Shown here: positions 2,723 to 27,250 of the stretch, piece by piece
Position numbering within the stretch: position 1 is the stretch's first letter
How the letters are laid out: each line of letters opens with the position of its first letter
Source: a virus
DNA: 64,000 bases
Strand: one strand, 5' to 3'
IMG/VR virus record: IMGVR_UViG_3300045988_181996
Translations under genes and position numbers: made by a program
Notes under the pieces: generated by a model
What the model was told of the DNA's origin: nothing
What the model saw: only the letters and a program-made list of their open reading frames with translations
The model's database searches: none

Positions 2723-2738
2723 AAAATCACCCCTTTAA

Positions 2739-3773: not shown

Positions 3774-3779
3774 TTCAAA

Positions 3780-4520: not shown

Positions 4521-4611
4521 TATTTCACCTCACAAAATATTATATCAATATTATAACATAAAAAACCACATATACTAAATTAAAATAACATAAGATAAGT
4601 AGTTCTTATTA

Positions 4612-5745: not shown

Positions 5746-5837
5746 TATTATTCACCACCTATTTTATATAAGATTATTATAACACAAAAAACCACATATC
5801 CCAAATTAAATTAACATGAGATATGCAGTTTACATTG

Positions 5838-7472
5838 TTATCGTTCTAATCCTTTATCTTGTTCTTTATTAGATACTAAATTAACAGCATTTATAAACTC
5901 TTGTTTGTTCTTAAGTTCACTAATATTATCCATATCCTCAATTAAATCATCAATATATGTAGTTACATTTTGATAATCAGTTTTATCTTTTAAAAAGTAT
6001 ACATCATAATCAGTTTTTGTTGTGTGATCATGATTTTTAAATTGAGAATATTCACCCAATTTACCACTTTTACTACCGTCAAACAATTTATTTCCATACA
6101 TACTAGCAATACCATTAAATGAACTTATTTCCTCATCACTTGGATATTCTAAAACATATTTATTCTGAACATCTTCCATCCCGTTCCATGTATATTCGAT
6201 TACTAATTTACGATTGAAATCTTTATTGTTTAAATCAATTTCCATCTTATCACAATAACCGCCATATAAGTTCAACTCAAAATCTTTATATTTCTCATTT
6301 GATTTCAAAGCCTGAAGGTTTTGAACATGACCATAGAAATTAGTATAATCACTCATTAAATCTAAATCCATATCATATGTATTAGTTTCAACAATTCCAT
6401 TTTTATCACATGATATTATTTTATATTCTTCACCTTTATAATCAGGGCAAGTTGAAATTATATCATAATTATCATTTTCTTCATTATAAACAGCTTTTAT
6501 ATTATTTTCATTAAACTCGTTTATCACACGAGATAGATTTACATACCCAATTTCTCTTTCACGACCTAATGTATTCATATATGCTTCATATTGTTTTTTT
6601 TGATTTTCAGGTTCACGTAATTGTTTTATATCTTCTTTAAACCTATAATCAGTTATTTCTTCATATAAATTATTATCAATTAATCCTAATTCTTTTAATT
6701 CATTTGCAACAAAGTAATCAGAATGAAAATTATTATCTTTAGTTAAACGGTTTACCGATTTCATTATATCACTTTTCTCATCACATTTAGTTATTAATTT
6801 ATCTAAATATTCATTAAACTTATTACTATCCTCAACGTCTTCAGTTATTTCAAACGTTTCTATAAAATTCACACCATAAACTTCAAAATCTTCATCATAA
6901 GTAAAATTCTTTATTGAATCATGATAATCATCAATTTGTTTTTCTAATATAACATCTTTCATATTCTCACTCTTAAACCCGTTAAATAACATTCTATCAA
7001 CATCTTGAACACAACCCCACTCATTAGTTAAACGCATTTTAACAGGTGATTTTTTTAAATCATTTCCATCAGTAATTAACTGAATAGTTCGTTCAAAACC
7101 AGTTTTATCCTCATCTTTTAATGTGATATTAATACTACCACCAAGATGCATCATCCAATTCATATTATCACTATATTTAGGATCTAATTCCAAAGAACGA
7201 ACTTTATTCATAGCTGGAATTACAGTATCAATATTATAATCAAAATGACCTAAAAACGATTCACCATATATACTGTCATTTTGAATTTCATAAGTTTGAA
7301 TATCTTTTCCATCAACATTAGAATAAACGCCAAAATTATCAAATTTAGTTAATTTCATAAAATAACCATTATCATCTAATTTTTTTAAAGTTTCTTCACT
7401 AATTATAGAATCAGTTAACTCACGCATTTTATTAATATTTTCGTTTGAATTAAACTTATTTTCACTACTCAT
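5838..7472 (-). CDS. paralog-array protein, 544 aa, unique ~300 aa N-terminal extension fused to shared modules
   Basis: 'YNEENDNYDIISTCPDYKGEEYKIISCDKNG' and 'KLGEYSQF...QEFINAVNLVSNKEQDKGLER'. Confidence 0.6.
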   Translation of the reverse strand: MSSENKFNSNENINKMRELTDSIISEETLKKLDDNGYFMKLTKFDNFGVYSNVDGKDIQTYEIQNDSIYGESFLGHFDYNIDTVIPAMNKVRSLELDPKYSDNMNWMMHLGGSINITLKDEDKTGFERTIQLITDGNDLKKSPVKMRLTNEWGCVQDVDRMLFNGFKSENMKDVILEKQIDDYHDSIKNFTYDEDFEVYGVNFIETFEITEDVEDSNKFNEYLDKLITKCDEKSDIMKSVNRLTKDNNFHSDYFVANELKELGLIDNNLYEEITDYRFKEDIKQLREPENQKKQYEAYMNTLGREREIGYVNLSRVINEFNENNIKAVYNEENDNYDIISTCPDYKGEEYKIISCDKNGIVETNTYDMDLDLMSDYTNFYGHVQNLQALKSNEKYKDFELNLYGGYCDKMEIDLNNKDFNRKLVIEYTWNGMEDVQNKYVLEYPSDEEISSFNGIASMYGNKLFDGSKSGKLGEYSQFKNHDHTTKTDYDVYFLKDKTDYQNVTTYIDDLIEDMDNISELKNKQEFINAVNLVSNKEQDKGLER

Positions 7473-7475
7473 AAT

Positions 7476-8183
7476 CTACAACTCCATCCCATTATCTTTT
7501 TCTTTATTAGTTACCGAATTAACAGCATTTATAAACTCTTGTTCTTTAAGTTTTTTATGTTTTTCAGCATCTAACATACGCTTTTCCTCCAGCAATACAT
7601 TTTTTTCATTTAAATATTCATAAGCGTTATCCATGTAATATTTAACATAATCATGTTCCATCTCCCAAACTTCTTTATCTAATAACTTTAATTCATAATC
7701 ATCAAAAGCACGTTCTAAGTCAGGATAATCAGTTAAATCAACCCCGCCACGCTTAATAGTTTCATTAACCTCGTTATAAACTTCACCAAAGTTATTACCT
7801 ATTGAATTAAGTTCTTCGTAATACACACCGTTAAAAGCTTCTAATAAGTCACCACGGTGAGTATATACATGGTGTCTTGCTGGATCCGTTTCTAAAGATT
7901 CACGTAATCCTAAATATTTCTCATTATCTAACTTTTCAAGAGTAGTTAAGAAATTCGTAAAGTCTTTTCCACCACGACCATTACCAAGTAAATAACTACG
8001 TCTGTCACTAACAACCATAGTGTATTTATGGTCAACTTGTGGTGAGAAGTTTCTACCAAACTCAGCTATCTCACCACTCTTATCAAGTTCTTCTAACTTA
8101 ATTTTATCATCAACATCACTTTTAGCATAAAATTCTCCGTAATATTGAAGTTTATCTAATTGTTCTCGAATATCATTTTTCAT
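7476..8183 (-). CDS. paralog-array protein, 235 aa
   Basis: C-terminal 'QEFINAVNSVTNKEKDNGMEL' module. Different N-terminal domain. Confidence 0.55.
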   Translation of the reverse strand: MKNDIREQLDKLQYYGEFYAKSDVDDKIKLEELDKSGEIAEFGRNFSPQVDHKYTMVVSDRRSYLLGNGRGGKDFTNFLTTLEKLDNEKYLGLRESLETDPARHHVYTHRGDLLEAFNGVYYEELNSIGNNFGEVYNEVNETIKRGGVDLTDYPDLERAFDDYELKLLDKEVWEMEHDYVKYYMDNAYEYLNEKNVLLEEKRMLDAEKHKKLKEQEFINAVNSVTNKEKDNGMEL

Positions 8184-11923: not shown

Positions 11924-13102
11924 TTATACTGTAGTCAAAACAGTGTAGTTTTGACATTGTTCTAAGTTTAGAGATGCGTTTATATCTCGGTCGTGAACAA
12001 CGCTACATTTTGGACATGTCCAAGTACGTTCTTTTAATTTTAACTCTGTGTTTTTATACCCACAACAAGAACATAACTTGCTAGAAGGGTAGAAACGTGG
12101 AGCTAAACGTAGTTCAATCCCTAGTTTTTCACATTGGTTAGTTAAGAACAATCTTGACATATACCATTGTGCATTGGAAATTGTTTTAGATAAATGTTTA
12201 TTTTTCATTAGACTTTTTATATTCAAGTCTTCAATAGTTATAAAACTTGGTTTTTGTTTCATAATTGATTGTAGAGCTTTTTGATTATAATCAGTTCTAA
12301 TTCTTGTTATTCTTTCATAAAGTTTATTAACAAGTCTTTGATTTTTATTTAAATTTTTACATTCTCTCAAAGGGCGATTCCAATTAAAACTTTTTAATTG
12401 TCCTTTTTTCTTTCCTGTCTTGTAATAAACTTTATTAATCATGTTGTGTTCATATTTACGTGACAATGCACGTTGTTTTTGTTTTAACTTTTTCTCAAGT
12501 TTTATAACTCGTTTTGATTTGTTAATAGACGGTATCGTTTCATTTTTTGTAATGAATTGGTTTTTTATTCCAAAATCAATACCTATACCATGTGTAGAGG
12601 TAACGGTTTGTTTGATATTCACTTCATCAGTTAAACAAGAAACAAAGTAACGTCCATTTTTCATAGAAACAGTGACAGATTTAACATTATTCGGTATATA
12701 ACCAAATTCTTTTAATCGAACCCATTTTAGTTTAGGTAAAAAAATACGATGTCTTTCAACTTTTATTGTACCAATTAAATAGAAACTATTATTTTTTGAT
12801 TTCTTTTTAAAATTTGGTTTTCCTTTTTTACCATTTAAATAATCCCACATTGCTTTATGACCGTTCATTATTGCTTGTTTTATAGCTTTACTAGGTGACT
12901 TAATTAACCAATCAGGTCTATTTGGATCGTTATTTATCATCTTTGAATAATCATATCCTGAGATAATAGGTTGATTATTTTCTAAACGTTTAAAATTATA
13001 ACTGATAAATTGATTATAAATGTATCTAGTATTACCAAACGTTTGATGTATTAAATTAATTTGTTCTTTATTGGGTTTGATTTCTGTCTTGTAAGCTTTC
13101 AT
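11924..13102 (-). CDS. tnpB: second, divergent IS200/IS605-family TnpB, 392 aa
   Basis: 'RFYPSSKLCSCCGYKNTELKLKERTWTCPKCSVVHDRDINASLNL' zinc finger. 'ITIEDLNIKSLMKNKHLSK' RuvC-II-like. No tnpA. Confidence 0.85.
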   Translation of the reverse strand: MKAYKTEIKPNKEQINLIHQTFGNTRYIYNQFISYNFKRLENNQPIISGYDYSKMINNDPNRPDWLIKSPSKAIKQAIMNGHKAMWDYLNGKKGKPNFKKKSKNNSFYLIGTIKVERHRIFLPKLKWVRLKEFGYIPNNVKSVTVSMKNGRYFVSCLTDEVNIKQTVTSTHGIGIDFGIKNQFITKNETIPSINKSKRVIKLEKKLKQKQRALSRKYEHNMINKVYYKTGKKKGQLKSFNWNRPLRECKNLNKNQRLVNKLYERITRIRTDYNQKALQSIMKQKPSFITIEDLNIKSLMKNKHLSKTISNAQWYMSRLFLTNQCEKLGIELRLAPRFYPSSKLCSCCGYKNTELKLKERTWTCPKCSVVHDRDINASLNLEQCQNYTVLTTV

Positions 13103-13800: not shown

Positions 13801-14388
13801 TTAAAATACTCGAACTCCCATTAATGAATCTTCAGTAAAATTACCTACTGCACGGGAGTCTTGACTTACATCTCTATTATCACCTAATACAAAATAATGT
13901 CCTTCTGGTACAATAGTATCAAAATTAACAGTTTTAAATAGATGAATATTATTTTCATCTAAATATTTTTCTTCATATTTTACATTATTTACATATAAAA
14001 CACCGTCTATTACTGTTACTCTATCTCCTGGTAACCCGATTACACGTTTAACAATGTTTTTACTCTCACCACCATCAACTAATCGTTCTTTAAATACTGC
14101 TATATCAAATCTATCCACTCGCTCTTTTTTTAATAACATGTACTCACCATCTTTTAATGTTGGTAACATTGACGGACCGTCTACTTTAACTAATGTAAAA
14201 TTTATTCTAAATAACATTACAATCATGATAATTACTAAAAATACTGTAACATCTTTAACAGGTGAATGTAATTTTTTATGGTTATATATACTAACTTCAC
14301 TTTCATCAACACCCATAGCTTCTGCTAATTCTTTATTACGCTTTTTTAAATATTCATCATCTTTTTTATATCTATCAAAAATACCCAA
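13801..14388 (-). CDS. lepB: type I signal peptidase (SipS/LepB family), 195 aa
   Basis: Boxes 'GPSMLPTL', 'KRVIGLPGDRV', 'YFVLGDNRDVSQDSR' with catalytic Ser/Lys context. Confidence 0.85.
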   Translation of the reverse strand: MGIFDRYKKDDEYLKKRNKELAEAMGVDESEVSIYNHKKLHSPVKDVTVFLVIIMIVMLFRINFTLVKVDGPSMLPTLKDGEYMLLKKERVDRFDIAVFKERLVDGGESKNIVKRVIGLPGDRVTVIDGVLYVNNVKYEEKYLDENNIHLFKTVNFDTIVPEGHYFVLGDNRDVSQDSRAVGNFTEDSLMGVRVF

Positions 14389-14402: not shown

Positions 14403-14684
14403 CTAATTATCACGGTCATAATTACCAGACAATTCATGATCAATTTTATCTGATAAACGGTTTATTGAACTAACAATATTCATTTGACTTTGTAAAATAG
14501 CATTCATTCTATCTATTACTTCATTTGGTTGTGAATAACTCATATCATAGTCATCTAAATAATTCTTGACAGCTAAATTTACAACATCATTCATAGACAT
14601 CGATTTATCTGTTGCAACACTTAGTAATCTTCTCTTTGTTCTATCAGTTAATCTAATCTGTAAACTTTCAGTTCTTTTTTTCAC
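14403..14684 (-). CDS. ribbon-helix-helix DNA-binding protein, 93 aa
   Basis: 'LQIRLTDRTKRRLLSVATDKSMSMNDVVNLAVKNYL' RHH fold signature. Confidence 0.5.
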   Translation of the reverse strand: MKKRTESLQIRLTDRTKRRLLSVATDKSMSMNDVVNLAVKNYLDDYDMSYSQPNEVIDRMNAILQSQMNIVSSINRLSDKIDHELSGNYDRDN

Positions 14685-15775: not shown

Positions 15776-15836
15776 TTATTTTCAACCTTTCAAATTATGT
15801 AATTAACTAATTTTAAGACTTAGTTAGGTCTAACAT

Positions 15837-16610
15837 CTAAAAGAAATCATTTAAATTAGCATTTGCTTTTATTTTTTTTAACTGTTTTTCAATTTTCTTA
15901 TCTTTTTGCTTTATCTCATTAATTTTATTTTTCAAATTACTTGAATGAATCTCTACATCACTTAAATTAACGGATTTAGCAGTTTTCTTTGTCGATGTTT
16001 GTTTTTCTTGTTTTTCTTCTACATCTTTTTTTTGTGGTTTTTTCTTAACAGTTTTTTCAGTATTCGTTGTTGAAACCACTTCGTTTGATTTTTTAGACTG
16101 CTTTTTAGCTGTTGTCTTCTTTGGTTTTTCTTCTTTTTTTACCGTTTCTTTTTTCTCAGTTGTTTCGCTAATTTTACCAAATTCATTATCGATTTTAATT
16201 TTTATTTTTATTAAATGTGCCAAGGCTATATTTGCATTCTCACTTTGATTTAATATTAACTTAAAAATTTCAGAATGTGTTAATTTTTTACGTACAGTAG
16301 AATCATTAATATAATTAATAATTTCATCAGGTATTCCTTTAAAACGATACGAAAATGGTTTATCTATTTCTATATAATTAAAATTATCAGAATAACTATT
16401 ATAAAGTGCAATTGTTTGATTAATTGTTAAACCATATGTTGTACCTGTATTATATAGTAATTTTAACACATCACAATAAAATGAACTCAATCCATAACGA
16501 CAACTTTTCTTTAGTTGATCAATTTGACCAAATTTCGTATTTATATTATAATATAATGTTTTGTTCATTATAAAGATCCTTTCTTTTTTACTATGTTCAT
16601 ATTTTAACAT
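15837..16610 (-). CDS. putative plasmid replication initiator (basic C-terminus) adjacent to iterons, 257 aa (true start may be Met15, 16568)
   Basis: Gene start abuts the 13-bp iteron array. Lys-rich DNA-binding tail. No family motif recognised, so the call is by context only. Confidence 0.4.
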   Translation of the reverse strand: MLKYEHSKKERIFIMNKTLYYNINTKFGQIDQLKKSCRYGLSSFYCDVLKLLYNTGTTYGLTINQTIALYNSYSDNFNYIEIDKPFSYRFKGIPDEIINYINDSTVRKKLTHSEIFKLILNQSENANIALAHLIKIKIKIDNEFGKISETTEKKETVKKEEKPKKTTAKKQSKKSNEVVSTTNTEKTVKKKPQKKDVEEKQEKQTSTKKTAKSVNLSDVEIHSSNLKNKINEIKQKDKKIEKQLKKIKANANLNDFF

Positions 16611-16644
16611 CTTCTTTCAAAGAAGTCAAGTAATATATTATAAT

Positions 16645-16962
16645 TTGTTACCCTTAGTTGTTCTCCCTAGTTGTTACTCTTAGTTGTTCTCCTTAGTTGT
16701 TACTCTTAGTTGTTCTCCTTAGTTGTTACCCTTAGTTGTTACCCTTAGTTGTTACCCTTAGTTGTTACCCTTAGTTGTTCTCCTTAGTTGTTCTACTTAG
16801 TTGTTCTCACTAGTTGTTCTCCCTAGTTGTTCTACTTAGTTGTTCTACTTAGTTGTTCTCACTAATTGTTCTCCCTAGTTGTTCTCACTAGTTGTTCTAC
16901 TTAGTTGTTCTCACTAGTTGTTCTCCCTAGTTGTTCTCACTAGTTGTTACCCTTAGTTGTTA
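16645..16962. repeat. iteron array 1: ~24 tandem copies of a 13-bp unit YTAGTTGTTMYYC
   Basis: Read directly from the sequence. No unique spacers between units, so not CRISPR. Confidence 0.9.
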
Positions 16963-17071
16963 CAAAAAATACAAAAAAGATACAAAAATACAACACAAAA
17001 TCATTGACATTTATACATCACAATGATACACTAGATATATCGATAAAAAAAAGAAAGGAATAGACTAGAGC

Positions 17072-18073
17072 ATGGAAAAGAAAAAATCAGTTAAATTATC
17101 TGATATTTCAATAGATCAAATTAAAAGAAGTAAAAAAATAAAGAAAACTCCTTTAATTGAAGAAAAAATAAATGAAGAAACTCAAACACCTACTACTCAA
17201 GCTGACAATGAAGAACTTGGTAAAGCTGGAGAATATGTACCAGTCGAAGACGATGCTATAATTGAGATGTTTGAAACTAACAATGAAGAAAGTTTTGAAG
17301 AAATAGAACATGCAGTTATAGAAGAAACTAAAACACCTAACAATGAAATAGTTAACCCTATGGAAAGTATAGAACTTATTGATGATATTACAGATGAAGA
17401 TATTAATGCAACAAATCAACCTAAAAATAGTTTCTTTAAAGAAATAATTAATGAGTTCAAATCATATTCATTAACATTTAAACTATTTACGTTTCTTTCA
17501 ATCATTCTTGTTGGAATATTAATTGCAATTAGTGTTTATTTTTACAAGAAAACACCGAAAAATGTTGAACAACAAGAACAACCTAAACAAGAAGTTAAAC
17601 AAGAAGTTAAACAAGAAGAAAAAACAGAAGATGATAGTAAATCAGAAAAAGAAAAACTTCAATCCAAACTTGAAGATAGTGTTAAATCAATTAACACACC
17701 TACTAAAGTTGCAACAGAAGATTTATTTGGTGGATATATATTAGGTAGTACTACTTATTATCCTGATGACCCACAAAAACTTTATATTGATTTCACTATC
17801 AAACCACCTAAAGAAAAACAACCACAAGCTGATGATGAAACTGCTCTGAAAATTCTAAAAACTTTAAAATCGACTTTACCTAAAATAAACGAAACTATTG
17901 AAGTTAAAGATAAATCTAAAGTTACTATGGAAATTTATAAACAAAAATCAGAATATCAAACTATTCTATTATATGACGGTAAACCATTTGCTTATGTTTC
18001 AACTGATAAAGACCTTGTTTCAACTAACCATGTTACTGGTGAATATGTCTCAAAAGTTGCTAAAGACGCTTAA
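17072..18073 (+). CDS. membrane-anchored protein, acidic N-terminus, single TM, extracytoplasmic C-domain, 333 aa
   Basis: TM 'FTFLSIILVGILIAISVYFY'. KQEVKQE repeats. Confidence 0.5.
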   Translation: MEKKKSVKLSDISIDQIKRSKKIKKTPLIEEKINEETQTPTTQADNEELGKAGEYVPVEDDAIIEMFETNNEESFEEIEHAVIEETKTPNNEIVNPMESIELIDDITDEDINATNQPKNSFFKEIINEFKSYSLTFKLFTFLSIILVGILIAISVYFYKKTPKNVEQQEQPKQEVKQEVKQEEKTEDDSKSEKEKLQSKLEDSVKSINTPTKVATEDLFGGYILGSTTYYPDDPQKLYIDFTIKPPKEKQPQADDETALKILKTLKSTLPKINETIEVKDKSKVTMEIYKQKSEYQTILLYDGKPFAYVSTDKDLVSTNHVTGEYVSKVAKDA

Positions 18074-18210
18074 TAATAAAAAGTACTACAAACACACTTG
18101 TAGTACTCTTTTTTTATATTAAAAAAGTCTCCAGAAAAACTCGTCTGTATTAATTTTTCGTGGTATCTTAGTCTCCACAAAAACTTATCCGAAGAATTTT
18201 ATCAAATTTT

Positions 18211-18320
18211 TTACCTGTGGTATTTTATATAAAAAATTACTACCTACGGTATTTTATTTAAAAATTTATTACATCACGTATTTTATTCAAAAAAATAACC
18301 TACAAATGTATTTTCATCAT
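18211..18320. repeat. four ~26-bp direct repeats ACCTRYGGTATTTTATWTAAAAAWTT
   Basis: Seen in sequence, in the non-coding 18.1-19.25 kb region. Confidence 0.7.
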
Positions 18321-18429
18321 ACACCCCTAACATACTTTGTATTTTTATTAGCAAGTCTATTACTTTGTATTATCATCATAATAATAAATTATACTAGTAT
18401 AATTATATTACTCATCAGGATATACTAAC

Positions 18430-18542
18430 TCGCTTAGAATATTATCATTCTAGGATTTACTTAATCAGTATTTAATATTATTATTCTAGGTAATATCTAA
18501 CTATCTAAGAATATTACCCTTCTAGGTAATACTTAATTAGGA
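18430..18542. repeat. three ~35-bp direct repeats (..AATATTAYYCTTCTAGGTAATACTTAA..)
   Basis: Seen in sequence. Confidence 0.7.
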
Positions 18543-19155
18543 AAAAATATACTGTACTATTTTTTACTCAAATCGCAAGGAATGTTGCTTCCTTATTTCA
18601 ATTTCTAATTAAGTAGAAATTATAAAACCCTATTAAAAACTTGAAGCGGCAAGATCATCAAAAAAAAAATAAAAAGATAAAAACATTTAAAAAAAATAAT
18701 GACTTAATATATCAAAAAATCTCCTGTTATTAAAATTTACCGATGCAATTTTATTAATTCGATCTTTTAAGTGAACCCCTACCTTTAAAATTCTCACAAC
18801 TAAATTTACCTTTAAAATAACTAATTAAAACATCATCAAAATAACATTTTAGCAAACTCCCTCACAAAAAAAATACAACTAAATAAAAAAATTCCATTCA
18901 AATAAAATTTTTAAGACGCATTTAAACACCCTTCTCGCTTTGATGAAATACTTTCTGGTATAATTGGTCCAAAAAATATTTTACGACGATTCTAGGGGTA
19001 TAGAAATAGCTCCTAGAGGGTGATTCATTATTTTTGTATATAGTATATTTCGGATAATGACATTTTAACAAAATTATTTAATAAACGTCTACATTTGTCG
19101 TTATCTATTTAACCTTCTTATCCTAATTGGTAATAATATATTTATCGCTGCAAAA

Positions 19156-19210
19156 CGTAATTCTACGAATTACTTAAAAATAAGTTAGGCATAGCCTAAA
19201 ACCCTTTAAC
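19156..19210 (+). promoter_or_regulatory. hairpin motif copy 1: CGTAATTCTACGAATTAC + TTAGGCATAGCCTAA + ACCCTTTAAC upstream of the 19252 gene
   Basis: Two palindromes plus a conserved ACCCTTTAA box. Recurs five times before plus-strand genes. Confidence 0.6.
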
Positions 19211-19251
19211 TCGAAAATATTAATTAAATAAATGTTTGGAGGGTTACCGCT

Positions 19252-19659
19252 ATGAGTTCTACTAAACCATGGATTAAATTCACGCAAGATTATAATAAAG
19301 GTAAATATTCTTACTACAAAAAATCTTATAAAAACCACGACTACTACGTTGTAATTAACCACTTATTCGCACTATGTGGTTATGTCGAAGACACTCTATC
19401 AAGACCTCAAGAACGTTATTTCTTTGATCCATATGAATACGACTTAGATGTTCACGGTGGTGTTACTTATAATGGTGAAGCTTATTTCAATAAAAAAGAT
19501 AAACGCTTATTTATCGGATTTGATTGTGCTCACGCTTGTGATAACGTACCTAAACTATCTTACATTGGTGAAAATCTACCATGGCGAAATGAAAAATATG
19601 TTGAACGTCAATGTAGAAAACTTATTAATCAACTAATAAAATTAAAAGGAGAGCTTTAA
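19252..19659 (+). CDS. hypothetical protein 135 aa (conserved His/Cys/Asp cluster 'HGGVTY..GFDCAHACD')
   Basis: GGAGGG RBS. First gene of the plus-strand cluster. Confidence 0.55.
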   Translation: MSSTKPWIKFTQDYNKGKYSYYKKSYKNHDYYVVINHLFALCGYVEDTLSRPQERYFFDPYEYDLDVHGGVTYNGEAYFNKKDKRLFIGFDCAHACDNVPKLSYIGENLPWRNEKYVERQCRKLINQLIKLKGEL

Positions 19660-19660
19660 T

Positions 19661-19846
19661 ATGACTACTACATACTACTTTATTCAACACCCTACTGAAA
19701 ACCTTTATCGTGAAGACTATACTCTATTTACTTCAATTGATAAATTAAAAAAAGCTAATTCAATTGAAGAAGACTCGAAAATATTCTCAGTTGAAATTAA
19801 TAACAAATATCAAATTATTGGTACTCCTACTGAAATAACTATTTAA
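19661..19846 (+). CDS. hypothetical 61 aa
   Basis: AAAGGAGAG RBS. Translationally coupled to the preceding gene. Confidence 0.45.
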   Translation: MTTTYYFIQHPTENLYREDYTLFTSIDKLKKANSIEEDSKIFSVEINNKYQIIGTPTEITI

Positions 19847-19860
19847 AAGGAGATTTAATC

Positions 19861-20115
19861 ATGAAAACATTTATGGACATAATTATCTACTTACTTGGTT
19901 CAATTATTATTCTTTTTGTGTTTGGATTCCCTTTATTTGTTGCTGCACACTACGGCTCACTAAAAGAAAAAATTAAAAAAATCAATGAAGAAAGTAAAAA
20001 ACTTGATGACGAAATCGCTAAAATTGATTCTTTCACTCGCTCTATTAAAGGTGCTACAAACACTGACTATATCAAGGAACAACAAAAAATGCATTTCCCT
20101 GATAAATTTAATTAA
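19861..20115 (+). CDS. small membrane protein 84 aa
   Basis: AAAGGAGA RBS. TM 'IIIYLLGSIIILFVFGFPLFVAA'. Confidence 0.5.
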   Translation: MKTFMDIIIYLLGSIIILFVFGFPLFVAAHYGSLKEKIKKINEESKKLDDEIAKIDSFTRSIKGATNTDYIKEQQKMHFPDKFN

Positions 20116-20138
20116 AATTAAAAAAAGGAGATTTTATT

Positions 20139-20246
20139 ATGCTTGAATTTATTAAAGCACTCGCTGGAGGTTTTATGTTACTCTTACTAATATTCATGGG
20201 TGGTTATGCCGCTGGTGGATTCTGGGAAGATAACGATAAAAAATAA
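20139..20246 (+). CDS. 35-aa hydrophobic peptide (MLEFIKALAGGFMLLLLIFMGGYAAGGFWEDNDKK)
   Basis: AAAAGGAGA RBS 8 nt upstream. Not in the ORF track. Confidence 0.3.
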   Translation: MLEFIKALAGGFMLLLLIFMGGYAAGGFWEDNDKK

Positions 20247-20404
20247 AAAATTATGAAAAAATTATTAAACATTTACTTAAAACGCTTTGTTAAATACTTT
20301 GTTGGAAGAATTCTTTACATAACTAACTTTAAGTTATTAGCTAAATTCTTCCAACTATTTAATATCTACAAACTATTTAAAATTCTACACAGGAGGTAAT
20401 TAAT

Positions 20405-20869
20405 ATGAGTAATACAATCAAACTATCTACAACTCACCAAACTCACGATTTCCTTAGTCGTTTGAATGAACAACAAAAACTTGAACATGAAATCTATCAG
20501 TTTGTTAGATCTATTGAAATGAAAAACCATACATTAGATAGATTCCGTTCAAAGTTTATTGAGCTTTATTGGAATAATAATTTCTACACACCTAATAAAA
20601 ATTCTTACTTGAAATTATTTGTTACTCTTATTAATCACCTTCAAAATGCTGAACTTGAGTGTCATATTAAAGACATTTCGTGGTTTAGTGATGTTATTAA
20701 ACAAGCTAAACTTAACCCTATTAATTACTCATCTAATTTCGATGAATATTATGAATTTACTTTCCTTGACTATAATAAAAGTTTATTCAACGAATCAACT
20801 AAAAACATCACATTAAAACTAACTTTAAGAGTTATTGATAACCACCTATATGGAATTATTTTACAATAA
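20405..20869 (+). CDS. hypothetical protein 154 aa
   Basis: CAGGAGG RBS. Confidence 0.55.
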   Translation: MSNTIKLSTTHQTHDFLSRLNEQQKLEHEIYQFVRSIEMKNHTLDRFRSKFIELYWNNNFYTPNKNSYLKLFVTLINHLQNAELECHIKDISWFSDVIKQAKLNPINYSSNFDEYYEFTFLDYNKSLFNESTKNITLKLTLRVIDNHLYGIILQ

Positions 20870-20888
20870 ACTAAAGGAGAAATAACAA

Positions 20889-21068
20889 TGGCTAAATTTA
20901 TTAAAATTGATGACAAAATTATTAATGTTGACCATATAGCTTTCATTGTTGAAAGTGAAAACATATATGATGAAAAATACACGAAATTTTTCTTAACTCA
21001 TGGTTTCGTTAATACTAAATTAAAATTAGATGAAGTCTATAAATTAATCGAAGATTGTTCTAGTTAAT
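20889..21068 (+). CDS. hypothetical 59 aa (MAKFIKIDDKIINVDHIAF...)
   Basis: AAAGGAGA RBS. Hand-translated. Below the ORF-track cut-off. Confidence 0.4.
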
Positions 21069-21096
21069 ACTTAACTCTTAATCTTTCGCTTATAAT

Positions 21097-21151
21097 CGTA
21101 ATTCTACGAATTACTCAAAAACCAATTAGGCTTCGCCTAATACCCCTTAAC
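21097..21151 (+). promoter_or_regulatory. hairpin motif copy 2: CGTAATTCTACGAATTAC + TTAGGCTTCGCCTAA + TACCCCTTAAC
   Basis: Near-identical to copy 1. Confidence 0.6.
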
Positions 21152-21187
21152 TTTTGAAATTTATTTTATTAATTGGAGGTTTTATAC

Positions 21188-21700
21188 ATGACTACTAAAT
21201 ACTTTATTGACGGTTCTTTCCAAACTATTAATGATCACGAAATCTGCGGATTTGCTTGTGCTGTTATAAACCCTGACGGTTCTATCGAAGAACTTAAAGG
21301 TGCTAAAGAATTCGAAAACCATTCTAATAACATCACTAGTGAATTACAAGCTTGTTACGTTGCTTTATATCACGCTATTACTAATAATATTAAAGATATC
21401 GAAATCTATCACGACTTACAAGGTACTAGTGCTTGGGCTAACGGTACTTGGAAAGCTAAAAAAGATGAAACTAAAAAATATGCTCAATACGTTAACGCTA
21501 TGAAACAACAATACGATTTAAATATCAAATTCATTAAAGTTGCTGGTCACTCTGGTGTTAAATACAATGATTTAGCTGACTCTTTAGCTGACCAAGCTGT
21601 AAAAGAATATGCTATGAAAAACAACATCTTACCAACTTTTGAATTTAACGAAGCTGATGAAGTTGAACAACCTATAGCTATGTTCAACCCATTAGCTTAA
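21188..21700 (+). CDS. RNase H (RNase HI-like fold), ~170 aa
   Basis: DEDD catalytic set aligned to E. coli RnhA: 'YFIDGS', 'SELQACYVAL', 'IYHDLQ', 'VAGHSGVKYNDLADSLA'. GGAGG RBS 8 nt before the 21188 ATG (the ORF track start at 21173 is less likely). Confidence 0.8.
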   Translation: MTTKYFIDGSFQTINDHEICGFACAVINPDGSIEELKGAKEFENHSNNITSELQACYVALYHAITNNIKDIEIYHDLQGTSAWANGTWKAKKDETKKYAQYVNAMKQQYDLNIKFIKVAGHSGVKYNDLADSLADQAVKEYAMKNNILPTFEFNEADEVEQPIAMFNPLA

Positions 21701-21718
21701 TATTAATAATTTATATCA

Positions 21719-21744
21719 AGGGGTTCTTATGAACCCCTTATTTT
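21719..21744 (+). terminator. rho-independent terminator GGGGTTCttatGAACCCC + T-run
   Basis: 7-bp GC stem followed by TTATTTT. Confidence 0.7.
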
Positions 21745-21754
21745 GGAGTTTATT

Positions 21755-22156
21755 ATGTACATCATACTACCTTTTAACGCAAATCATAACTCACACGCTG
21801 TAGAGGTTTATTCTAAAATTAAGGATATTCCTTTCCCAACCAACGTACCTGTACGTTGTTATCGTCTTAATAAAAAAATCTATAATGAGTTAGAGCTTAA
21901 TTATTACAATATCCACAAGGATTACTCTCACTCAGTTACTCTACCACGTTTTCAAATTGCTTATGAAGTACCTATCTATAAACACGAACTTCATAAAAAG
22001 TTTAACGTTTCTAAAACTGAACTTATCGCTATTTACGAAAATCACGTAAAAGAACTTAATTATCTATCAGATAACACTATTCTCTTACTTTGGAAACTTA
22101 AAATGCATCCTGAAATAATCGCTAATAGTAAATTAGCTCATTTGCTTAAATATTAA
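21755..22156 (+). CDS. hypothetical 133 aa
   Basis: GGAG 6 nt before the ATG at 21755 (the ORF track uses a TTG at 21743). Confidence 0.5.
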   Translation: MYIILPFNANHNSHAVEVYSKIKDIPFPTNVPVRCYRLNKKIYNELELNYYNIHKDYSHSVTLPRFQIAYEVPIYKHELHKKFNVSKTELIAIYENHVKELNYLSDNTILLLWKLKMHPEIIANSKLAHLLKY

Positions 22157-22166
22157 GGAGTTTATT

Positions 22167-22553
22167 ATGAATTACATTCTTAGAAATTACCCAAATAACA
22201 ATATTCGTAAACTACTTTGTCCTTATCAACATTCAAAACTTAAAAAAATAAACTATACTTACTACAACCGTTTACGTGAGTTTATTACTTCTAAAGATTT
22301 TAAATGTATATTTTATCTATCTATTAAAAACAACGAAATCATCGAACTTGATGTTGTAACTCACCACCAAGCACAAGTTCTAAACTTGTTTAATAACATT
22401 AAACAGGATTTAAAACCTATTAAAAAAGGTACTTGGTACGTTACTAAACTTGAATATGGTTATTTAGTTTTCCCTAAACTAAACATACCTTTCAACAACA
22501 ACCAATGCTTCTATTTTGAATGTAACTCATTCTACGATTCACTTATATTCTAG
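22167..22553 (+). CDS. hypothetical 128 aa
   Basis: AAGGAG RBS. Confidence 0.5.
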   Translation: MNYILRNYPNNNIRKLLCPYQHSKLKKINYTYYNRLREFITSKDFKCIFYLSIKNNEIIELDVVTHHQAQVLNLFNNIKQDLKPIKKGTWYVTKLEYGYLVFPKLNIPFNNNQCFYFECNSFYDSLIF

Positions 22554-22567
22554 GAGGTTTTCTAACC

Positions 22568-22939
22568 ATGAAATCTACTATCGCAAATCTATTACTTCAA
22601 ATTAATTCTATCAATGAAAAAATTAAAGTCATTGAAAAAGAGTTACAATCAAATATCAAAAATAACATTATTGATACTTTCCTTACAGATTTTATTGGTT
22701 TTAAATCATTCCAACCAAATTACGATTCTAAAATCTGTACGTTCAAATTAATTGATTTAAACACTCTTGATGTCGGTACGATTCTACCTACCGAAACTCT
22801 AGGGCTTTTCAATAATAACACTCTATTTTTTAACGTTTATACTGAAAATATTAATTTCTCACTTAATCTACATACTCTTTGGATTTATAAAAAAGATAAC
22901 GTTGTTACTGAAATTTTCTACACTAAACTTATAAACTAA
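22568..22939 (+). CDS. hypothetical 123 aa
   Basis: AGGAGG RBS. Confidence 0.5.
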   Translation: MKSTIANLLLQINSINEKIKVIEKELQSNIKNNIIDTFLTDFIGFKSFQPNYDSKICTFKLIDLNTLDVGTILPTETLGLFNNNTLFFNVYTENINFSLNLHTLWIYKKDNVVTEIFYTKLIN

Positions 22940-22949
22940 AAGTAACCAT

Positions 22950-23020
22950 TTAACTTGCACCCGCTAATACATACGTATTAGCTGGAAAACCAGTTAAGTT
23001 GCACCTAATACCCTTTAATC
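22950..23020 (+). promoter_or_regulatory. hairpin motif copy 3: TTAACTTGCACC ... GCTAATACATACGTATTAGC ... GTTAAGTTGCACC + TAATACCCTTTAATC
   Basis: 20-bp perfect palindrome flanked by 12-bp direct repeats, then the ACCCTTTAA box. Confidence 0.55.
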
Positions 23021-23057
23021 TATGAAAAAAAATTAAAACAAATTAAGGAGTCATATC

Positions 23058-23201
23058 ATGAAAATTAAAGTTAAACCATCTTATAAATACAAAATGTCTA
23101 ATGATGAATTACAAGATTACCTTAAAATGAAGAAGTCTGGTGCTTCTAAAACTAAAAATGGTCGTGCTTATTCACGTAAAAATTATAAAATCAATTATTA
23201 A
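23058..23201 (+). CDS. 47-aa basic peptide (MKIKVKPSYKYKMSNDELQDYLKMKKSGASKTKNGRAYSRKNYKINY)
   Basis: AAGGAG RBS. Hand-translated. Confidence 0.35.
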   Translation: MKIKVKPSYKYKMSNDELQDYLKMKKSGASKTKNGRAYSRKNYKINY

Positions 23202-23243
23202 AAAAAAAATATTAATTGATCTAAGTATTACATACTTATCATT

Positions 23244-23272
23244 TAGTTAGGTCACCCTAACACCCTTTAATC
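23244..23272 (+). promoter_or_regulatory. hairpin motif copy 4: TTAGTTAGGTCACCCTAA + CACCCTTTAATC
   Basis: Motif family, upstream of ssb1. Confidence 0.5.
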
Positions 23273-23310
23273 TAAAAAAAATAATAATCAAATAAAGAGA
23301 GGTTCTATTT

Positions 23311-23742
23311 ATGTTAAACAAATTTTTATTCACTGGAAGACTTACTGATAACGCTACACTTAAAAACACTTCTAAAAATGTCTTAGTTACTACTTTTTCT
23401 ATCGCTAATAACGAAAAAGTTAAAGATAAAGATATCACTACTTTCCTACCTGTTACGTTCTTCCCAAAAAGTACTAAACAAATGGAATTGCTTGCTAAAG
23501 GTAATTTAGTTACTGTTGAAGGACATTTTGCTACTAGTCAATTTACTGACCAATCTGGAAAAAATCAAGTTCGTACTGAATTTATCGTTGATAAATTTGA
23601 CTTACTTGCTCGTGTTAAATCTGTTGAACCTAAAAATGAATTCGTTAGTGCTGACAGTTACCAAGACGATTATGTTCCTGTTATGCCTGAATACATGGAA
23701 GATGATGCGTCTGTTGAATTATTCAACCCTATCGAAGATTAA
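23311..23742 (+). CDS. ssb: single-stranded DNA-binding protein (paralog 1), 143 aa, acidic C-tail ...DDASVELFNPIED
   Basis: Aligns with B. subtilis SSB: 'MLNKFLFTGRLTDNATLK..TTFSIANNE' and 'LAKGNLVTVEGHFATSQFTDQSGKNQVRTEFIVDKFDLL'. Confidence 0.85.
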   Translation: MLNKFLFTGRLTDNATLKNTSKNVLVTTFSIANNEKVKDKDITTFLPVTFFPKSTKQMELLAKGNLVTVEGHFATSQFTDQSGKNQVRTEFIVDKFDLLARVKSVEPKNEFVSADSYQDDYVPVMPEYMEDDASVELFNPIED

Positions 23743-23796
23743 TTTCTTTGACACTTATTCTTATATATGATATACTAGTTAAGTATAAAAGTCTAT

Positions 23797-23826
23797 GACG
23801 GGTGTTCTTTTAACACCCGTTATCTT
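23797..23826 (+). terminator. rho-independent terminator ACGGGTGTTcttttAACACCCGT + TATCTT
   Basis: 9-bp stem. Weak U-tract. Confidence 0.55.
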
Positions 23827-23857
23827 ATGTTGTTAGTTATAAAAGGAGGATATTCAT

Positions 23858-24097
23858 ATGTCAATTTTTAATGCAATTCAAAAGTTATTCACTAAATCTT
23901 TTGCTTCTGATAAATCTCTTACACAGCTTTACAAAGAAGAAAAAGATGTTATGCGTTTACTTCATTCTCTACCTGAAAATGAACGCAAATTCATTGTTGA
24001 ACGTGTTATGAAAAATTATCCAGGTGATAAAAATTTCAATAAAACACTTTTTAACGAAACTACTAAAATTCTTAAAAAAGATAAAGAGTTGAGCTAA
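23858..24097 (+). CDS. hypothetical 79 aa
   Basis: AAAGGAGG RBS. Confidence 0.5.
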   Translation: MSIFNAIQKLFTKSFASDKSLTQLYKEEKDVMRLLHSLPENERKFIVERVMKNYPGDKNFNKTLFNETTKILKKDKELS

Positions 24098-24173
24098 TCA
24101 TGGCTACAGCTCTTTTTTATTTAATCACAATATTAATCTGTATGCAAGATTAAATTTATTTCAAGGAGCTATT

Positions 24174-24506
24174 ATGGATAAATTCATTATTACTAACACC
24201 AATGACTTTAACTACCCTTATCTCATTACTCTTACTCATATAAAAAATAACAATGTTATTGATACACTAAAAGATTTAACTCTACCTAATCTAGCTAATA
24301 AAAAAATTATTATCGATACTCACCTAGTCTCAGATGATCATTCTAAAAGATTTTTATCTACTGTTGTTACTTACAACGAATCTATTAATACTGATAATTT
24401 AAATTATACTCTAGTTACTTATAATGACCCGTTAATGAAACTTGCCACTAATATTATTAATGATATTAAGTTGAAATTCTTTGTTTCATTTATTGATAAA
24501 TTATAA
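24174..24506 (+). CDS. hypothetical 110 aa
   Basis: CAAGGAG RBS. Confidence 0.45.
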   Translation: MDKFIITNTNDFNYPYLITLTHIKNNNVIDTLKDLTLPNLANKKIIIDTHLVSDDHSKRFLSTVVTYNESINTDNLNYTLVTYNDPLMKLATNIINDIKLKFFVSFIDKL

Positions 24507-24619
24507 CAAATTTTTCCTACCCTGAAAAAATCCCTTGTGTTTAATCCTTGACCTGAATACGTCTTTAAACTGTTCAATTTTTATTACGTGACAATTATAC
24601 TAATTGTCATAAAAACCAA

Positions 24620-24645
24620 TTAGGCTTTGCCTAACACCCTTTTAA
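24620..24645 (+). promoter_or_regulatory. hairpin motif copy 5: TTAGGCTTTGCCTAA + CACCCTTTTA, preceded by TTGACCTGAATACGTC box at 24549
   Basis: Motif family. TTGACCTGARTAYGTC is also present at 25611. Confidence 0.55.
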
Positions 24646-24685
24646 TTATGAAAAAATAAAAAAAATAAAGTGAGGTACAAAACTT

Positions 24686-25105
24686 ATGATTAAATTTAAT
24701 ACAATTACAACTACTGGTAACTTAGCAAGCAATATCCGTTTCTACGGAAAAGATAATTCAGCCGCTGAAATCGTTGTTTATGATTCAACTCGTAAAGAAA
24801 CACCTGTTCGTCATACGGCTTTCCTTAAAGACGCAGCACTTAAATCTATCGCTCCTAAATTAGTTAAAGGTGCTTTCGTTGCGATTGAAGGACATTTAGT
24901 TCCTAGACCGTCTACTAAAGAAAATCCTGATAATAACACTGATATTATCGTTGACTCTATCCGTTTCTTAAACAACCCTCTTAAAAATCGTAAACCAGCA
25001 GAAATTCCTGCTCTTAAAGTTGAAGACGACTTTGAAGTAGTTCAAGAAACTCCTGAAGTTCTTGATGAAAAACCTAAAAGAGGTCGTAAAAAAGCTACTA
25101 AATAA
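24686..25105 (+). CDS. ssb: SSB-like OB-fold protein (paralog 2), 139 aa, basic C-tail
   Basis: 'TGNLASN..' and 'LVKGAFVAIEGHLVPR' align to SSB strands. Lacks the acidic tip. Confidence 0.65.
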   Translation: MIKFNTITTTGNLASNIRFYGKDNSAAEIVVYDSTRKETPVRHTAFLKDAALKSIAPKLVKGAFVAIEGHLVPRPSTKENPDNNTDIIVDSIRFLNNPLKNRKPAEIPALKVEDDFEVVQETPEVLDEKPKRGRKKATK

Positions 25106-25286
25106 TAAATAATCTCTTAACAGTACTTAGACTGAGCTCTTACGCTTAGTCTTTGTACTGCACTTTGCTTGTGTGGGTTACTGTGATTTGCACAAGTTGG
25201 TTCAACTCCAACTACAAGCCAATCCTCCTCCTAATGAGGACTATTAACCAAATTAACTTTAACATTAAAAAAAGGTGGACAATTAT

Positions 25287-25598
25287 ATGATTATTAATCA
25301 ATTAACTGAAAATAACCATAAAAATAATATAGCGACTAATCTAAGACAAGTCATTTCTCATAAAAATAACGAATATCACATCGTCTTTGATTATCGTATC
25401 GGCAACCAAATTAAAAGTGCCAAGCTTACTTCTAATTTCTCTGATGAGGGTATCAAATACCTTTTACCTGATAACCCTACTCGTGAAGATATTCAGGCTC
25501 AAGCTAATGCTCTTGCCAATAAATACATTAAACAAGCTATATTATGCAAATCTCAAAAAGTTAAAAGTAATTACCATATAATTTTACCACCTAAATAA
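25287..25598 (+). CDS. hypothetical 103 aa
   Basis: AAAGGTGG RBS 7 nt before the ATG at 25287 (the ORF track GTG start at 25275 is unlikely). Confidence 0.45.
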   Translation: MIINQLTENNHKNNIATNLRQVISHKNNEYHIVFDYRIGNQIKSAKLTSNFSDEGIKYLLPDNPTREDIQAQANALANKYIKQAILCKSQKVKSNYHIILPPK

Positions 25599-25687
25599 TA
25601 AAAAAAAAACATTGACCTGAGTATGTCATTAAAAGACTTAAAATATAAAATAATAAATTAAAATATTAAGAAAAGAGGTATATATTT

Positions 25688-25999
25688 ATGACAATTTTAT
25701 TAACAGGACACATCTCAAGAAAAGAAACAGCAGTTGCTAAAACAGGGAAAGTTGCTTTCAACCAAGTTGCTTGTACTAACATCTATACTAAAAAAGACGG
25801 TACTCAAGTTGAAGATACTCAATTCATTAACTTCGCTATCCCTTCTAAATTCGAAAAACTTTGGAAACACCTTGATAAAGGTCAATTAGTTACTGTTGTT
25901 GCTCACATCGAACAATGGAAATCTACTAATGAAAAAGGTGAAAATCGCTATACTCAAATGGTTGTAGCTGACTCTATCGGGTTAGGCTCTGCTAAATAA
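25688..25999 (+). CDS. ssb: SSB-like OB-fold protein (paralog 3), 103 aa, no C-terminal tail
   Basis: 'TQFINFAIPSKFEKLWKHLDKGQLVTVVAHIEQ' vs SSB '[33 protein letters not shown]'. Confidence 0.7.
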   Translation: MTILLTGHISRKETAVAKTGKVAFNQVACTNIYTKKDGTQVEDTQFINFAIPSKFEKLWKHLDKGQLVTVVAHIEQWKSTNEKGENRYTQMVVADSIGLGSAK

Positions 26000-26005
26000 T
26001 TTATT

Positions 26006-26036
26006 AAAGACCACTATAAGTGGTCTTTTTTATTTT
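26006..26036 (+). terminator. rho-independent terminator AGACCACtataaGTGGTCT + T6
   Basis: 7-bp stem plus T-run directly after ssb3. Confidence 0.75.
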
Positions 26037-26233
26037 ACGGAAATCCTACGTATTTCCTACGGTGGTGACATGGCTTCGCATTAATGTCACGCTTAAAAAA
26101 AACAGTTACCCTTATCTTATTTATTTAATGGTGTAACTGTTTTTTTTATTTGTACAATTAACTCCGTTAATTGTTTTATTAAATTGCAATAGCCTACGCC
26201 TATTGCTATTATTTAAAATAATTATTCAAATTT

Positions 26234-26472
26234 GTTACCCTTAGTTGTTCTCCCTAGTTGTTACCACCAGTTGTTACCCTTAGTTGTTACCACTAGTTGT
26301 TACCACTAGTTGTTCTCCCTAGTTGTTCCCCCTAATTGTCACTCTTAGTTGTTCTCCCTAGTTGTTCCCCCTAATTGTTACTACTAGTTGTTACTACTAG
26401 TTGTTACCCTTAGTTGTTACCACTAGTTGTTACTACTAGTTGTTACCCTTAGTTGTTACCACTAGTTGTTAC
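26234..26472. repeat. iteron array 2: ~18 tandem copies of the same 13-bp YTAGTTGTTMYYC unit as array 1
   Basis: Seen in sequence. Same orientation as array 1, 9.3 kb away. Confidence 0.9.
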
Positions 26473-26564
26473 TTCACTTTGCTTTACCTATTAAAAAACT
26501 ATATTTGATTAAAAATATTTCGATCTCGATACCAAAATATACTTTATTATTAACATTAACTATA

Positions 26565-26690
26565 TCTCTTATATAAATCAATTATATTAATCTCTTATAT
26601 AAACACATTATATAAACACCTTATATAAAAACCTTATATAATCACTATATAAACACCTTATATTAACACCTTATATTAATCAAATTCATA
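26565..26690. repeat. second iteron family: ~9 copies of ~12-bp (C)ACCTTATATAAA(C) preceded by an AT-rich stretch
   Basis: Seen in sequence. Confidence 0.8.
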
Positions 26691-26824
26691 AACACCTTTA
26701 AAAAAAACGCAATTCCTACGTAATTGCTTATATTGGTTCGTGGCTTCGCATTAACTCACTTCCTGATTCATTACTTGAATCAGTCTTCGGTCAAACTCGT
26801 CTCAAACTCCTTTGACATAAGGAA

Positions 26825-27047
26825 CTCCCCCCCCTTTTTTGTTAATAATTATATGAAATTTATTTTGTTGAAAAGTATTAGTTGAGTGTTAGTTGAAATT
26901 ATTTGAAAAAATATTATATCGGGAAATTATATAGATGATTTCTAAAAATAATTTATGGGCAAATTTTATTTGAGGGAATTATTATATGAATATATTATGT
27001 CCATTATTTTTTATTCCCTCAATTTATTTTTTTAATAGGGGGGGAGT
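26825..27047. repeat. element bounded by inverted ACTC8 / G7AGT homopolymer repeats with an inner TTGAGGGAAT/ATTCCCTCAA inverted repeat
   Basis: C8 at 26827-26834 and G7 at 27038-27044, in ~27% GC DNA. Confidence 0.6.
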
Positions 27048-27250
27048 AAAAGAGCATAAGAGAAAATATAATTCAAATTAACTAAAATCCTTATTATAAA
27101 ACAAATATATTATATATCAAAAATCAACTATTTTTTTTAATATTTAAAATGAATTTTAATATAAATATAAAAAAATAACCTACACATTAAATATAATATG
27201 TAAGTTATTTTATAAATTTAATATTTATAATTTTTATGGTTTATAAATTT

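Follow-up and report, generated by a model that had tools for sequence, protein, structure and literature searches.

Two co-oriented arrays of a 13-bp repeat and their probable reader, a predicted single-chain ribbon-helix-helix protein

The virus record IMGVR_UViG_3300045988_181996 (IMG/VR) provides a stretch of 64,000 nucleotides, hereafter the window, that carries two long arrays of one 13-bp repeat. The two share one strand (+) and are 9,263 bp apart, which bears out an earlier note on this DNA that had described two co-oriented arrays some 9.3 kb apart. An island of small genes lies between them, and next to array 1 lies a gene, here called X, whose product is predicted to be a ribbon-helix-helix (RHH) protein. 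The array keeps its period and its position beside X in six lineages and its sequence changes in step with that of X; we consider it probable that X is the protein that binds the arrays. In the more specific explanation that we favor tentatively, at a little less than an even chance, the arrays are docking tracks for X with two roles, promoter-regulating at array 1 and proximal to a candidate origin of transfer (oriT) at array 2. The window matches human-gut metagenome contigs. The features discussed are collected in Table 1.

Both arrays hold a strict 13-bp phase without a single indel, as counting and aligning their units confirms. TRF places array 1 at 16652-16961 with period 13 (23.8 copies, 86% matches, score 385) and array 2, of equal period, at 26232-26472 (18.5 copies, score 279), in agreement with the copies of about 24 and about 18 given earlier; strict phasing yields 25 and 19 units, and copy numbers taken from assemblies are in any case only estimates. 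The autocorrelation at lag 13 is 0.84 for array 1 and 0.79 for array 2, compared with 0.2-0.3 at lags 11, 12, 14 and 15. The unit reads TTGTT-MYNNY-TAG, such that an 8-bp core, TAGTTGTT, spans the unit junctions and is followed by a variable 5-bp spacer. The core is found 49 times in the window, where 6.4 +/- 2.5 occurrences are expected and none of 100 shuffles reaches 49. Of the 49 matches, 38 are within the arrays, array 1 having 23 and array 2 the other 15. The eight positions of the core carry about 2 bits of information each, against 0.8-1.2 bits at each of the five in the spacer. At least six kinds of spacer variant are seen, some of them private to one array, array 2 included, while the first two units of array 2 are the same as the first two of array 1. 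Since the core is near-invariant and the spacer is variable, the core appears to be under selection and not the outcome of mere slippage, and this pattern points to arrays that behave as protein-binding "iterons". No open reading frame (ORF) of the mechanical ORF list spans either array, because the 13-bp step brings a TAG on the + strand, or a TAA on the - strand, into each of the three frames. An Rfam search gave no RNA family within or near the arrays, and no CRISPR repeat matches were found in them; a CRISPR array was rejected, as the 13-bp units run head-to-tail without spacers between them.

The earlier note had named collapse of one repeat during assembly as a way in which the arrays could prove artefactual. 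They are no such artefact, because both arrays and the unique sequence between them recur across independent assemblies. Ten independent assemblies of the same element (L142-L151), from different samples and with contigs of 50-248 kb, all contain array 2, and array 1 is also present, with the unique island between, in every one of them that extends far enough. Both arrays together with the unique 9-kb stretch are seen in L001, L143, L144, L145, L147 and L148. The number of units ranges from at least 18 to 31 in array 1 and from 5 to 30 in array 2. In one scaffold array 2 is interrupted by an N-gap, and several contigs terminate within an array; the unit counts are estimates, as the true lengths are beyond short-read resolution.

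Comparison of six lineages provides the evidence that X reads the arrays. A 13-bp-period array lies directly upstream of the X promoter in all six, ending 7-16 bp before the -35 hexamer (16 bp in the window) with its orientation to X constant, and its lag-13 autocorrelation is 0.52-0.91 over all lineages. The X proteins are merely 27-41% identical between lineages and the array units have diverged as well (the lineage cores of Table 1 are all stated in window orientation). β-Strands are the base-reading elements of RHH proteins, and the residues of the two predicted β-strands of X vary in step with the lineage cores. A conserved period, a conserved position and a co-varying sequence make X the most likely array binder. 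The comparison for a second array covers four lineages (window, P0001, P0022 and P0021; the contigs of P0023 and P0024 end too early), and in all four a second array with the same core and orientation stands at the far end of the island.

These observations also bear on the view that the arrays are functionless, slippage-prone satellites, whose sole relevance would be that recombination between them could delete or amplify the island. The 5-31 units between assemblies, the N-gap in array 2 and the contigs that break at arrays are in its favor. We regard it as highly improbable nonetheless: the core is invariant where the spacer is not, position, period and orientation are kept in spite of the divergence of X and of the unit sequences, and no deletion junction was seen in the contigs read. 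Direct repeats can yield deletion, not inversion. Accordingly, of the two rearrangements of the intervening 9 kb that had been suggested, deletion is possible in principle and inversion is not. The deletion product (X beside the topoisomerase gene) was absent from the contigs read via topoisomerase and single-stranded-DNA-binding-protein (SSB) look-ups, although consensus assemblies may hide rare events.

Searches beyond these lineages returned little. Neither megablast of 15800-27300 against plasmids and phages nor tblastn of X against plasmids gave a match. The pattern AGTTGTT-N6 x3 had 14 single matches in viral contigs and, among the matches listed, unrelated single matches in genome contigs. 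A metagenome scan for CGAACTA-N6 x4, in a collection without gut assemblies, gave 61 unrelated loci (L164-L224) from environmental samples (GC 30-73%), often at contig ends; by a rough estimate this is near chance level for any 7-mer among period-13 tandem repeats, and it is uninformative for this system.

The gene adjoining array 1 had been described as a putative Rep gene at 15837-16610. A gene is indeed present there, on the - strand, most likely starting at 16568 rather than 16610, but its product does not look like a Rep. It has no Rep match in Pfam or NCBIfam and no Pfam match at E <= 0.01, which also places it outside the TraY and VirC2 sequence families. The N-terminal domain (residues ~4-130) is predicted to be a single-chain double RHH, a tandem fold like those of TraY, single-chain Arc and AvtR, and it is followed by a Lys-rich disordered linker and a conserved C-terminal helix that ends in NxxLxxF[FLM]. 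AlphaFold2 gave a pLDDT of 40 from a shallow alignment of 10 sequences (N-domain identity at least 68%), and the fold was obtained after distant homologues, taken from a search of a representative library, had been added. A profile search against PDB sequences found no match, and Foldseek of the model against PDB found nothing significant. The family is tiny, with 6 clusters among 1.84 billion proteins. We propose that X is a previously undescribed single-chain (pseudo-dimeric) RHH protein, which as predicted would hold two RHH motifs in one polypeptide, as do relaxosome accessory proteins of the TraY/VirC2 type.

The predicted fold speaks against the suggestion that the arrays form an origin plus an incompatibility or handcuffing locus. 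Array 2 with its AT-rich DNA would then be oriV, X the initiator, and array 1 the site of incompatibility/handcuffing and of autoregulation. One repeat does occur in two arrays, of which array 1 adjoins the promoter of the neighboring gene and array 2 adjoins AT-rich DNA and a second repeat family, a layout that resembles P1 incC/incA or F incB/incC. However, X is a predicted tandem RHH protein, for which the winged-helix fold of a Rep is not predicted, and the array units are contiguous, 13 bp long and present in 19-45 copies, whereas Rep iterons measure about 17-22 bp, are spaced, usually stand in helical phase and number from a few to about ten. In addition, a distinct TGGACA/TGTCCA cluster near the gene for a DUF5906 protein is a better candidate for the replication origin than the arrays, unless it is an operator. 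We consider a replication role for the arrays improbable.

Array 1 sits between the promoter-like sites of X and of a divergent gene. The site on the + strand would drive the gene for a 333-aa membrane protein, and a gene for a 311-aa membrane protein lies directly downstream of X. A motif, [IV][KN]LSD[IV]x[IV], is common to the three proteins: it is N-terminal in both membrane proteins (residues 20-29 of the 311-aa and 6-15 of the 333-aa protein) and stands in the C-terminal part of X (residues ~205-212). It may be a shared docking peptide, for which BLAST provides weak support (E 0.69). Further along the same long minus-strand block downstream of X, a series of genes without recognised function at 2375-8183 are nearly the same in their 3' ends and in their upstream regions (repeat families D12, D15 and D18; 80-91% identity) and look like a family of paralogous gene cassettes. 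IS605-family TnpB genes occur at 11924-13102 and 38-1276, in or near the X operon.

Beyond array 2 lie a second 13-bp repeat family, itself AT-rich, and AT-rich DNA, as had been noted before, in an element that is itself 27% GC. In lineage P0001 a counterpart with another unit, CTTACCTTAATCC, holds the same place beside array 2 (L225 13849-13952). Such a lineage-specific unit implies that another protein reads these repeats; it may be the small RHH protein encoded at 14403-14684, which has a weak "ORF56 copy control" RHH match. The block beyond array 2 is conserved and opens with a hairpin whose loop carries GCTTCGCATTAA (26065-26090 and again 26743 in the window; likewise in L158 and L225). 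The stretch from array 2 to the topoisomerase gene contains, in this order, a C-rich arm, about 200 bp of AT-rich DNA, a G-rich arm and an invariant motif. Across lineages the invariant AAAGAGCATAAGRGA is found at the G-rich arm or one base beyond it, and the arms co-vary in a compensatory way (ACTCCCCCCC/GGGGGGGAGT in the window, ACACCCCTCCC/GGGAGGGGTGT in L225 and TATCCCCCT/AGGGGGATA in L154) with the motif unchanged. In three lineages this inverted repeat plus AAAGAGCATAAGRGA is 0.25-0.6 kb from array 2. Nick regions of oriT usually show just such an inverted repeat next to an invariant motif, and from this arrangement we infer that it is a candidate oriT nick region.

The direction of transfer affects how the island is viewed. 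If the rule of pLS20, a plasmid with a relaxase of the MOBL family, is applied here, the + strand would be the transferred strand, and the position of the inverted repeat 5' of the motif on the + strand fits such transfer. With the + strand transferred, the island would not be physically "leading". The term "leading-like" in the earlier note is therefore uncertain: the genes fit establishment functions, but by the pLS20 analogy the island may not be transferred first. A 1.1-kb non-coding stretch at 18108-19251 carries four repeats of 29 bp (TACCTACGGTATTTTATTTAAAAAATTAC) and three of 36 bp, the latter with TTCTAGG in them. It is a candidate for an alternative oriT or a regulatory region; TTCTAGG/TTCTTAGG motifs recur at the equivalent place in L158 (7690-8360).

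A mechanism for the two docking tracks can now be proposed. Its starting points are the two conserved arrays, the way they co-vary with X and the fold predicted for X, from which we infer DNA binding with one monomer per unit. One X monomer would read one 8-bp core by its two-stranded β-ribbon, and neighboring monomers would touch across the 13-bp step to form a cooperative "train" of 19-30 or more. As a 13-bp step corresponds to a rotation of ~86 degrees, the train would spiral round the DNA. On array 1, X would regulate both the promoter of its own long minus-strand operon and the divergent promoter; on array 2, the train would provide an oriT-proximal accessory platform. The C-terminal helix, on its long basic tether, would recruit a partner, be it the relaxase, the coupling protein or another factor.

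The X train is modeled, at much larger scale, on TraY of F, a monomer with a complete RHH-dimer fold. Three TraY molecules bind in a train and contact one another extensively, and two sites for TraY have been mapped in F (PMC12117103). The differences are considerable. F TraY on oriT (sbyA/sbyC; PDB 9f0x) has no detectable sequence similarity to X, which has extra helices, the Lys-rich tether and the C-terminal helix. TraY occupies ~3 subsites in ~30 bp, whereas the arrays have 19-45 contiguous 13-bp units at two loci 8-12 kb apart, with a gene island between, in an element of an uncultured low-GC Gram-positive host with a MobL relaxase. The other proteins with this type of fold, AvtR of an archaeal lipothrixvirus and VirC2 of the Ti plasmid, have no long tandem arrays, and their biological contexts are unrelated to the element here.

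The main rival to the docking-track explanation, less probable in our judgment but still a live one, is that the arrays are centromere-like partition sites, which had also been raised before. X would bind centromeres in the manner of the RHH proteins omega, ParG and ParR and build segrosomes by coating the two arrays. Through its C-terminal helix it would contact a segregation motor, supplied by the host or by a gene located elsewhere, and array 1 would also serve as the operator of the X operon. A predicted RHH protein is encoded beside the repeats, as RHH-type partition loci require, and the arrays far exceed the four contiguous short direct repeats (at least) that are expected of such loci. 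The layout of X, with a DNA-binding domain, a disordered tether and a conserved terminal helix, resembles that of centromere-binding proteins that recruit a partner, and an element with contigs of 50-248 kb is probably low-copy and would need partition.

Known partition systems provide both likeness and contrast. The omega-parS system of pSM19035 has six sites of 7-10 contiguous, non-palindromic 7-bp direct repeats, overlapping promoters and coated cooperatively by an RHH protein (PMC9499535), and coating of contiguous, non-palindromic short repeats by promoters at several places is what we propose for X. But omega binds as one homodimer per 7-bp repeat and the ParA (delta) gene is adjacent, whereas X is predicted to be single-chain, the unit measures 13 bp and no ParA is found; the omega-parS repeats overlap promoters, and array 1 stops short of the -35 hexamer. 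ParR-parC (type II) and ParG-parH (type Ib) likewise combine an RHH protein that has a flexible partner-binding tail with tandem direct repeats by the operon promoter. There the repeats, 4-10 in number, follow the helical phase of DNA (10-11 bp or 20 bp) and the motor gene is adjacent, neither of which is true here. Two sets of short repeats flank stability genes in pBMB165, pXO2 and pAW63, and in the repB-repC arrangement of pAD1/pXO2/pBMB165 two sets of one 8-bp repeat flank a gene block of a Gram-positive plasmid (PMC1626470). The genes flanked there are a ParA-like ATPase and a small stability protein (~1.5 kb), as against a 9-kb SSB/RNase H island in the window. The search for a motor speaks against partition: a ParA, ParM or TubZ-type NTPase was found neither beside X in the six lineages nor anywhere in the window, and in known par loci the NTPase gene adjoins that of the centromere-binding protein. 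The genes conserved around X encode instead a small RHH protein, a membrane protein, a signal peptidase and proteins of the cell-wall hydrolase or transfer type, and array 2 keeps its place beside the candidate oriT and not beside a par gene.

The island bracketed by the arrays contributes a further alternative. Its three SSB-like genes and its RNase H-like gene fit an establishment island. Its gene content varies by sample (L144 is without several genes), and in P0001 a resolvase plus TnpB unit lies inside it (L225 2843-4814). A bipartite hairpin element precedes each island operon in one copy, and two copies flank array 2 and the second repeat family. Hairpin 1 has a (C)TAC(G) loop, shows compensatory changes in 5 of its 7 pairs and is followed by TTAGGCTTCGCCTAA or GGCTTCGCATTAA. 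In role these elements resemble the repeated regulatory sequences (EGeRS) found upstream of establishment operons in pLS20-family plasmids (PMC8708921). As promoters on single-stranded DNA of the F type they could function if the - strand is transferred; it is impossible if the + strand is.

Conceivably, the X train of array 1 pairs with that of array 2 and so loops out the SSB/RNase H island of 8-12 kb. Such a loop would silence or time the island genes in established hosts, or couple oriT to the X-operon promoter. The arrays bracket the same kind of island in the same orientation in four lineages, and the conserved hairpin element ahead of each island operon recalls the establishment-operon repeats of the pLS20 family (PMC8708921). 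Pairing of X trains is hypothetical, however, and the repeated elements upstream of the island operons could regulate them without any loop; we deem looping or insulation unlikely. It overlaps the docking-track explanation and is compatible with an X train rather than exclusive of it. In its boldest form, which we also hold to be doubtful, X would be a new class of filament-forming, TraY-like single-chain RHH protein whose two trains, hundreds of bp each, pair across 8-12 kb, couple oriT to the X-operon promoter and loop the island.

Table 1. Features of the window and their counterparts in related lineages. Positions are those of the window unless preceded by an L number.
Feature	Position	Strand	Remarks
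Small RHH protein gene	14403-14684		
311-aa membrane-protein gene	14840-15775		
Gene X	15837-16568	-	243 aa; mechanical ORF extends to 16610
Promoter-like site of gene X	16601-16629	-	TTGACT-17-TAAAAT, TG-extended
Array 1	16645-16969	+	25 units, strict 13-bp phase, indel-free
Divergent promoter-like site	17004-17032	+	TTGACA-17-TACACT; 35 bp from the other end of array 1
333-aa membrane-protein gene	17072-18073	+	
Gene island bracketed by arrays	19252-25999	+	All genes on + strand; many small ORFs without recognised function
RNase H-like gene	21185-21700	+	
SSB-like genes (three)	23311-23742, 24686-25105, 25688-25999	+	
RnlB-antitoxin-like gene	within 19252-25999	+	Weak match
Bipartite hairpin element	19140-19234, 21081-21175, 22962-23027, 24588-24653, 26034-26095, 26704-26765		
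Bipartite hairpin element, P0001	L225 13170-13232, 13955-14015		
Array 2	26232-26478	+	19 units, strict 13-bp phase, indel-free
Second 13-bp repeat family	26569-26698	+	CTTATATAAACAC, ~10 units; between array 2 and candidate oriT
Candidate oriT core	26824-27063	+	Between array 2 and topoisomerase gene
C-rich arm, candidate oriT	26824-26833	+	ACTCCCCCCC
G-rich arm, candidate oriT	27038-27047	+	GGGGGGGAGT
Invariant motif, candidate oriT	27049-27063	+	AAAGAGCATAAGAGA; one base past G-rich arm
Candidate oriT counterpart	L225 ~14064-14323		
Candidate oriT counterpart	L154 ~240-300	-	
Topoisomerase	27251-29695		
ClpB-like double AAA+ protein	30916-33213		765 aa, GTG start
MobL-family relaxase domain	33191-34048		ORF merely 285 aa
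TGGACA/TGTCCA cluster	35001-35269		~10 repeats in 270 bp, both orientations
DUF5906 helicase-like protein	36050-37900		
Coupling protein	41684-45466		Relatives found just 24-32% identical
Array core, window lineage			TAGTTGTT
Array core, P0001/P0016			TAGTTGTTCT or TATCGTTCT; ~45 units in two blocks
Array core, P0022			TAGTTCG; 29 units
Array core, P0023			CTAGTTTG; contig end
Array core, P0021			TAGATTAC
Array core, P0024			TAACTT
Second array, P0001	L225 13332-13764		~33 units; 12.0 kb from array 1, of which 2 kb is an insertion sequence
Second array, P0022	L158 1-161		8.2 kb from array 1
Second array, P0021	L152 34-209, L154 498-756		8.9 kb from array 1

The remaining genes characterize the element as a whole. 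Besides a relaxase domain of the MobL family, a coupling protein and a topoisomerase, the window encodes a SecA paralogue, an AgI/II-type adhesin and the two TnpB proteins, and it has no tRNA genes. The element is conjugative or mobilisable, belongs to a low-GC Gram-positive host and is distant from sequenced plasmids. The relaxase ORF overlaps the GTG start of the ClpB-like gene by ~20 nt; the pair is kept in all related loci, and the ClpB-like protein is an unusual partner for a relaxase. The TGGACA/TGTCCA cluster, with 10 of the 23 copies in the window, sits in a 745-bp gap between the relaxase operon and a gene for a 147-aa protein that precedes the DUF5906 gene. A two-site origin like P4 ori/crr, used by the DUF5906 protein through the 13-bp arrays, was rejected: the arrays track X, and the DUF5906 gene has its own repeat cluster.

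Plasmids have repeatedly built centromeres, operators and relaxosomes by letting an RHH protein coat short tandem repeats. The system described here would extend this idea by a new single-chain RHH family and by a 13-bp step that is not helical and runs to 19-45 units. Through its conserved two-locus layout, a putative oriT and the start of a long operon are linked across an island of establishment genes. The elements are large and recurrent in human gut metagenomes, and the arrays explain why they are fragmented in short-read assemblies. If X trains did pair across the island, which we hold to be unlikely, they would be a chromatin-like switch that times establishment-gene expression and transfer in a Gram-positive conjugative element.

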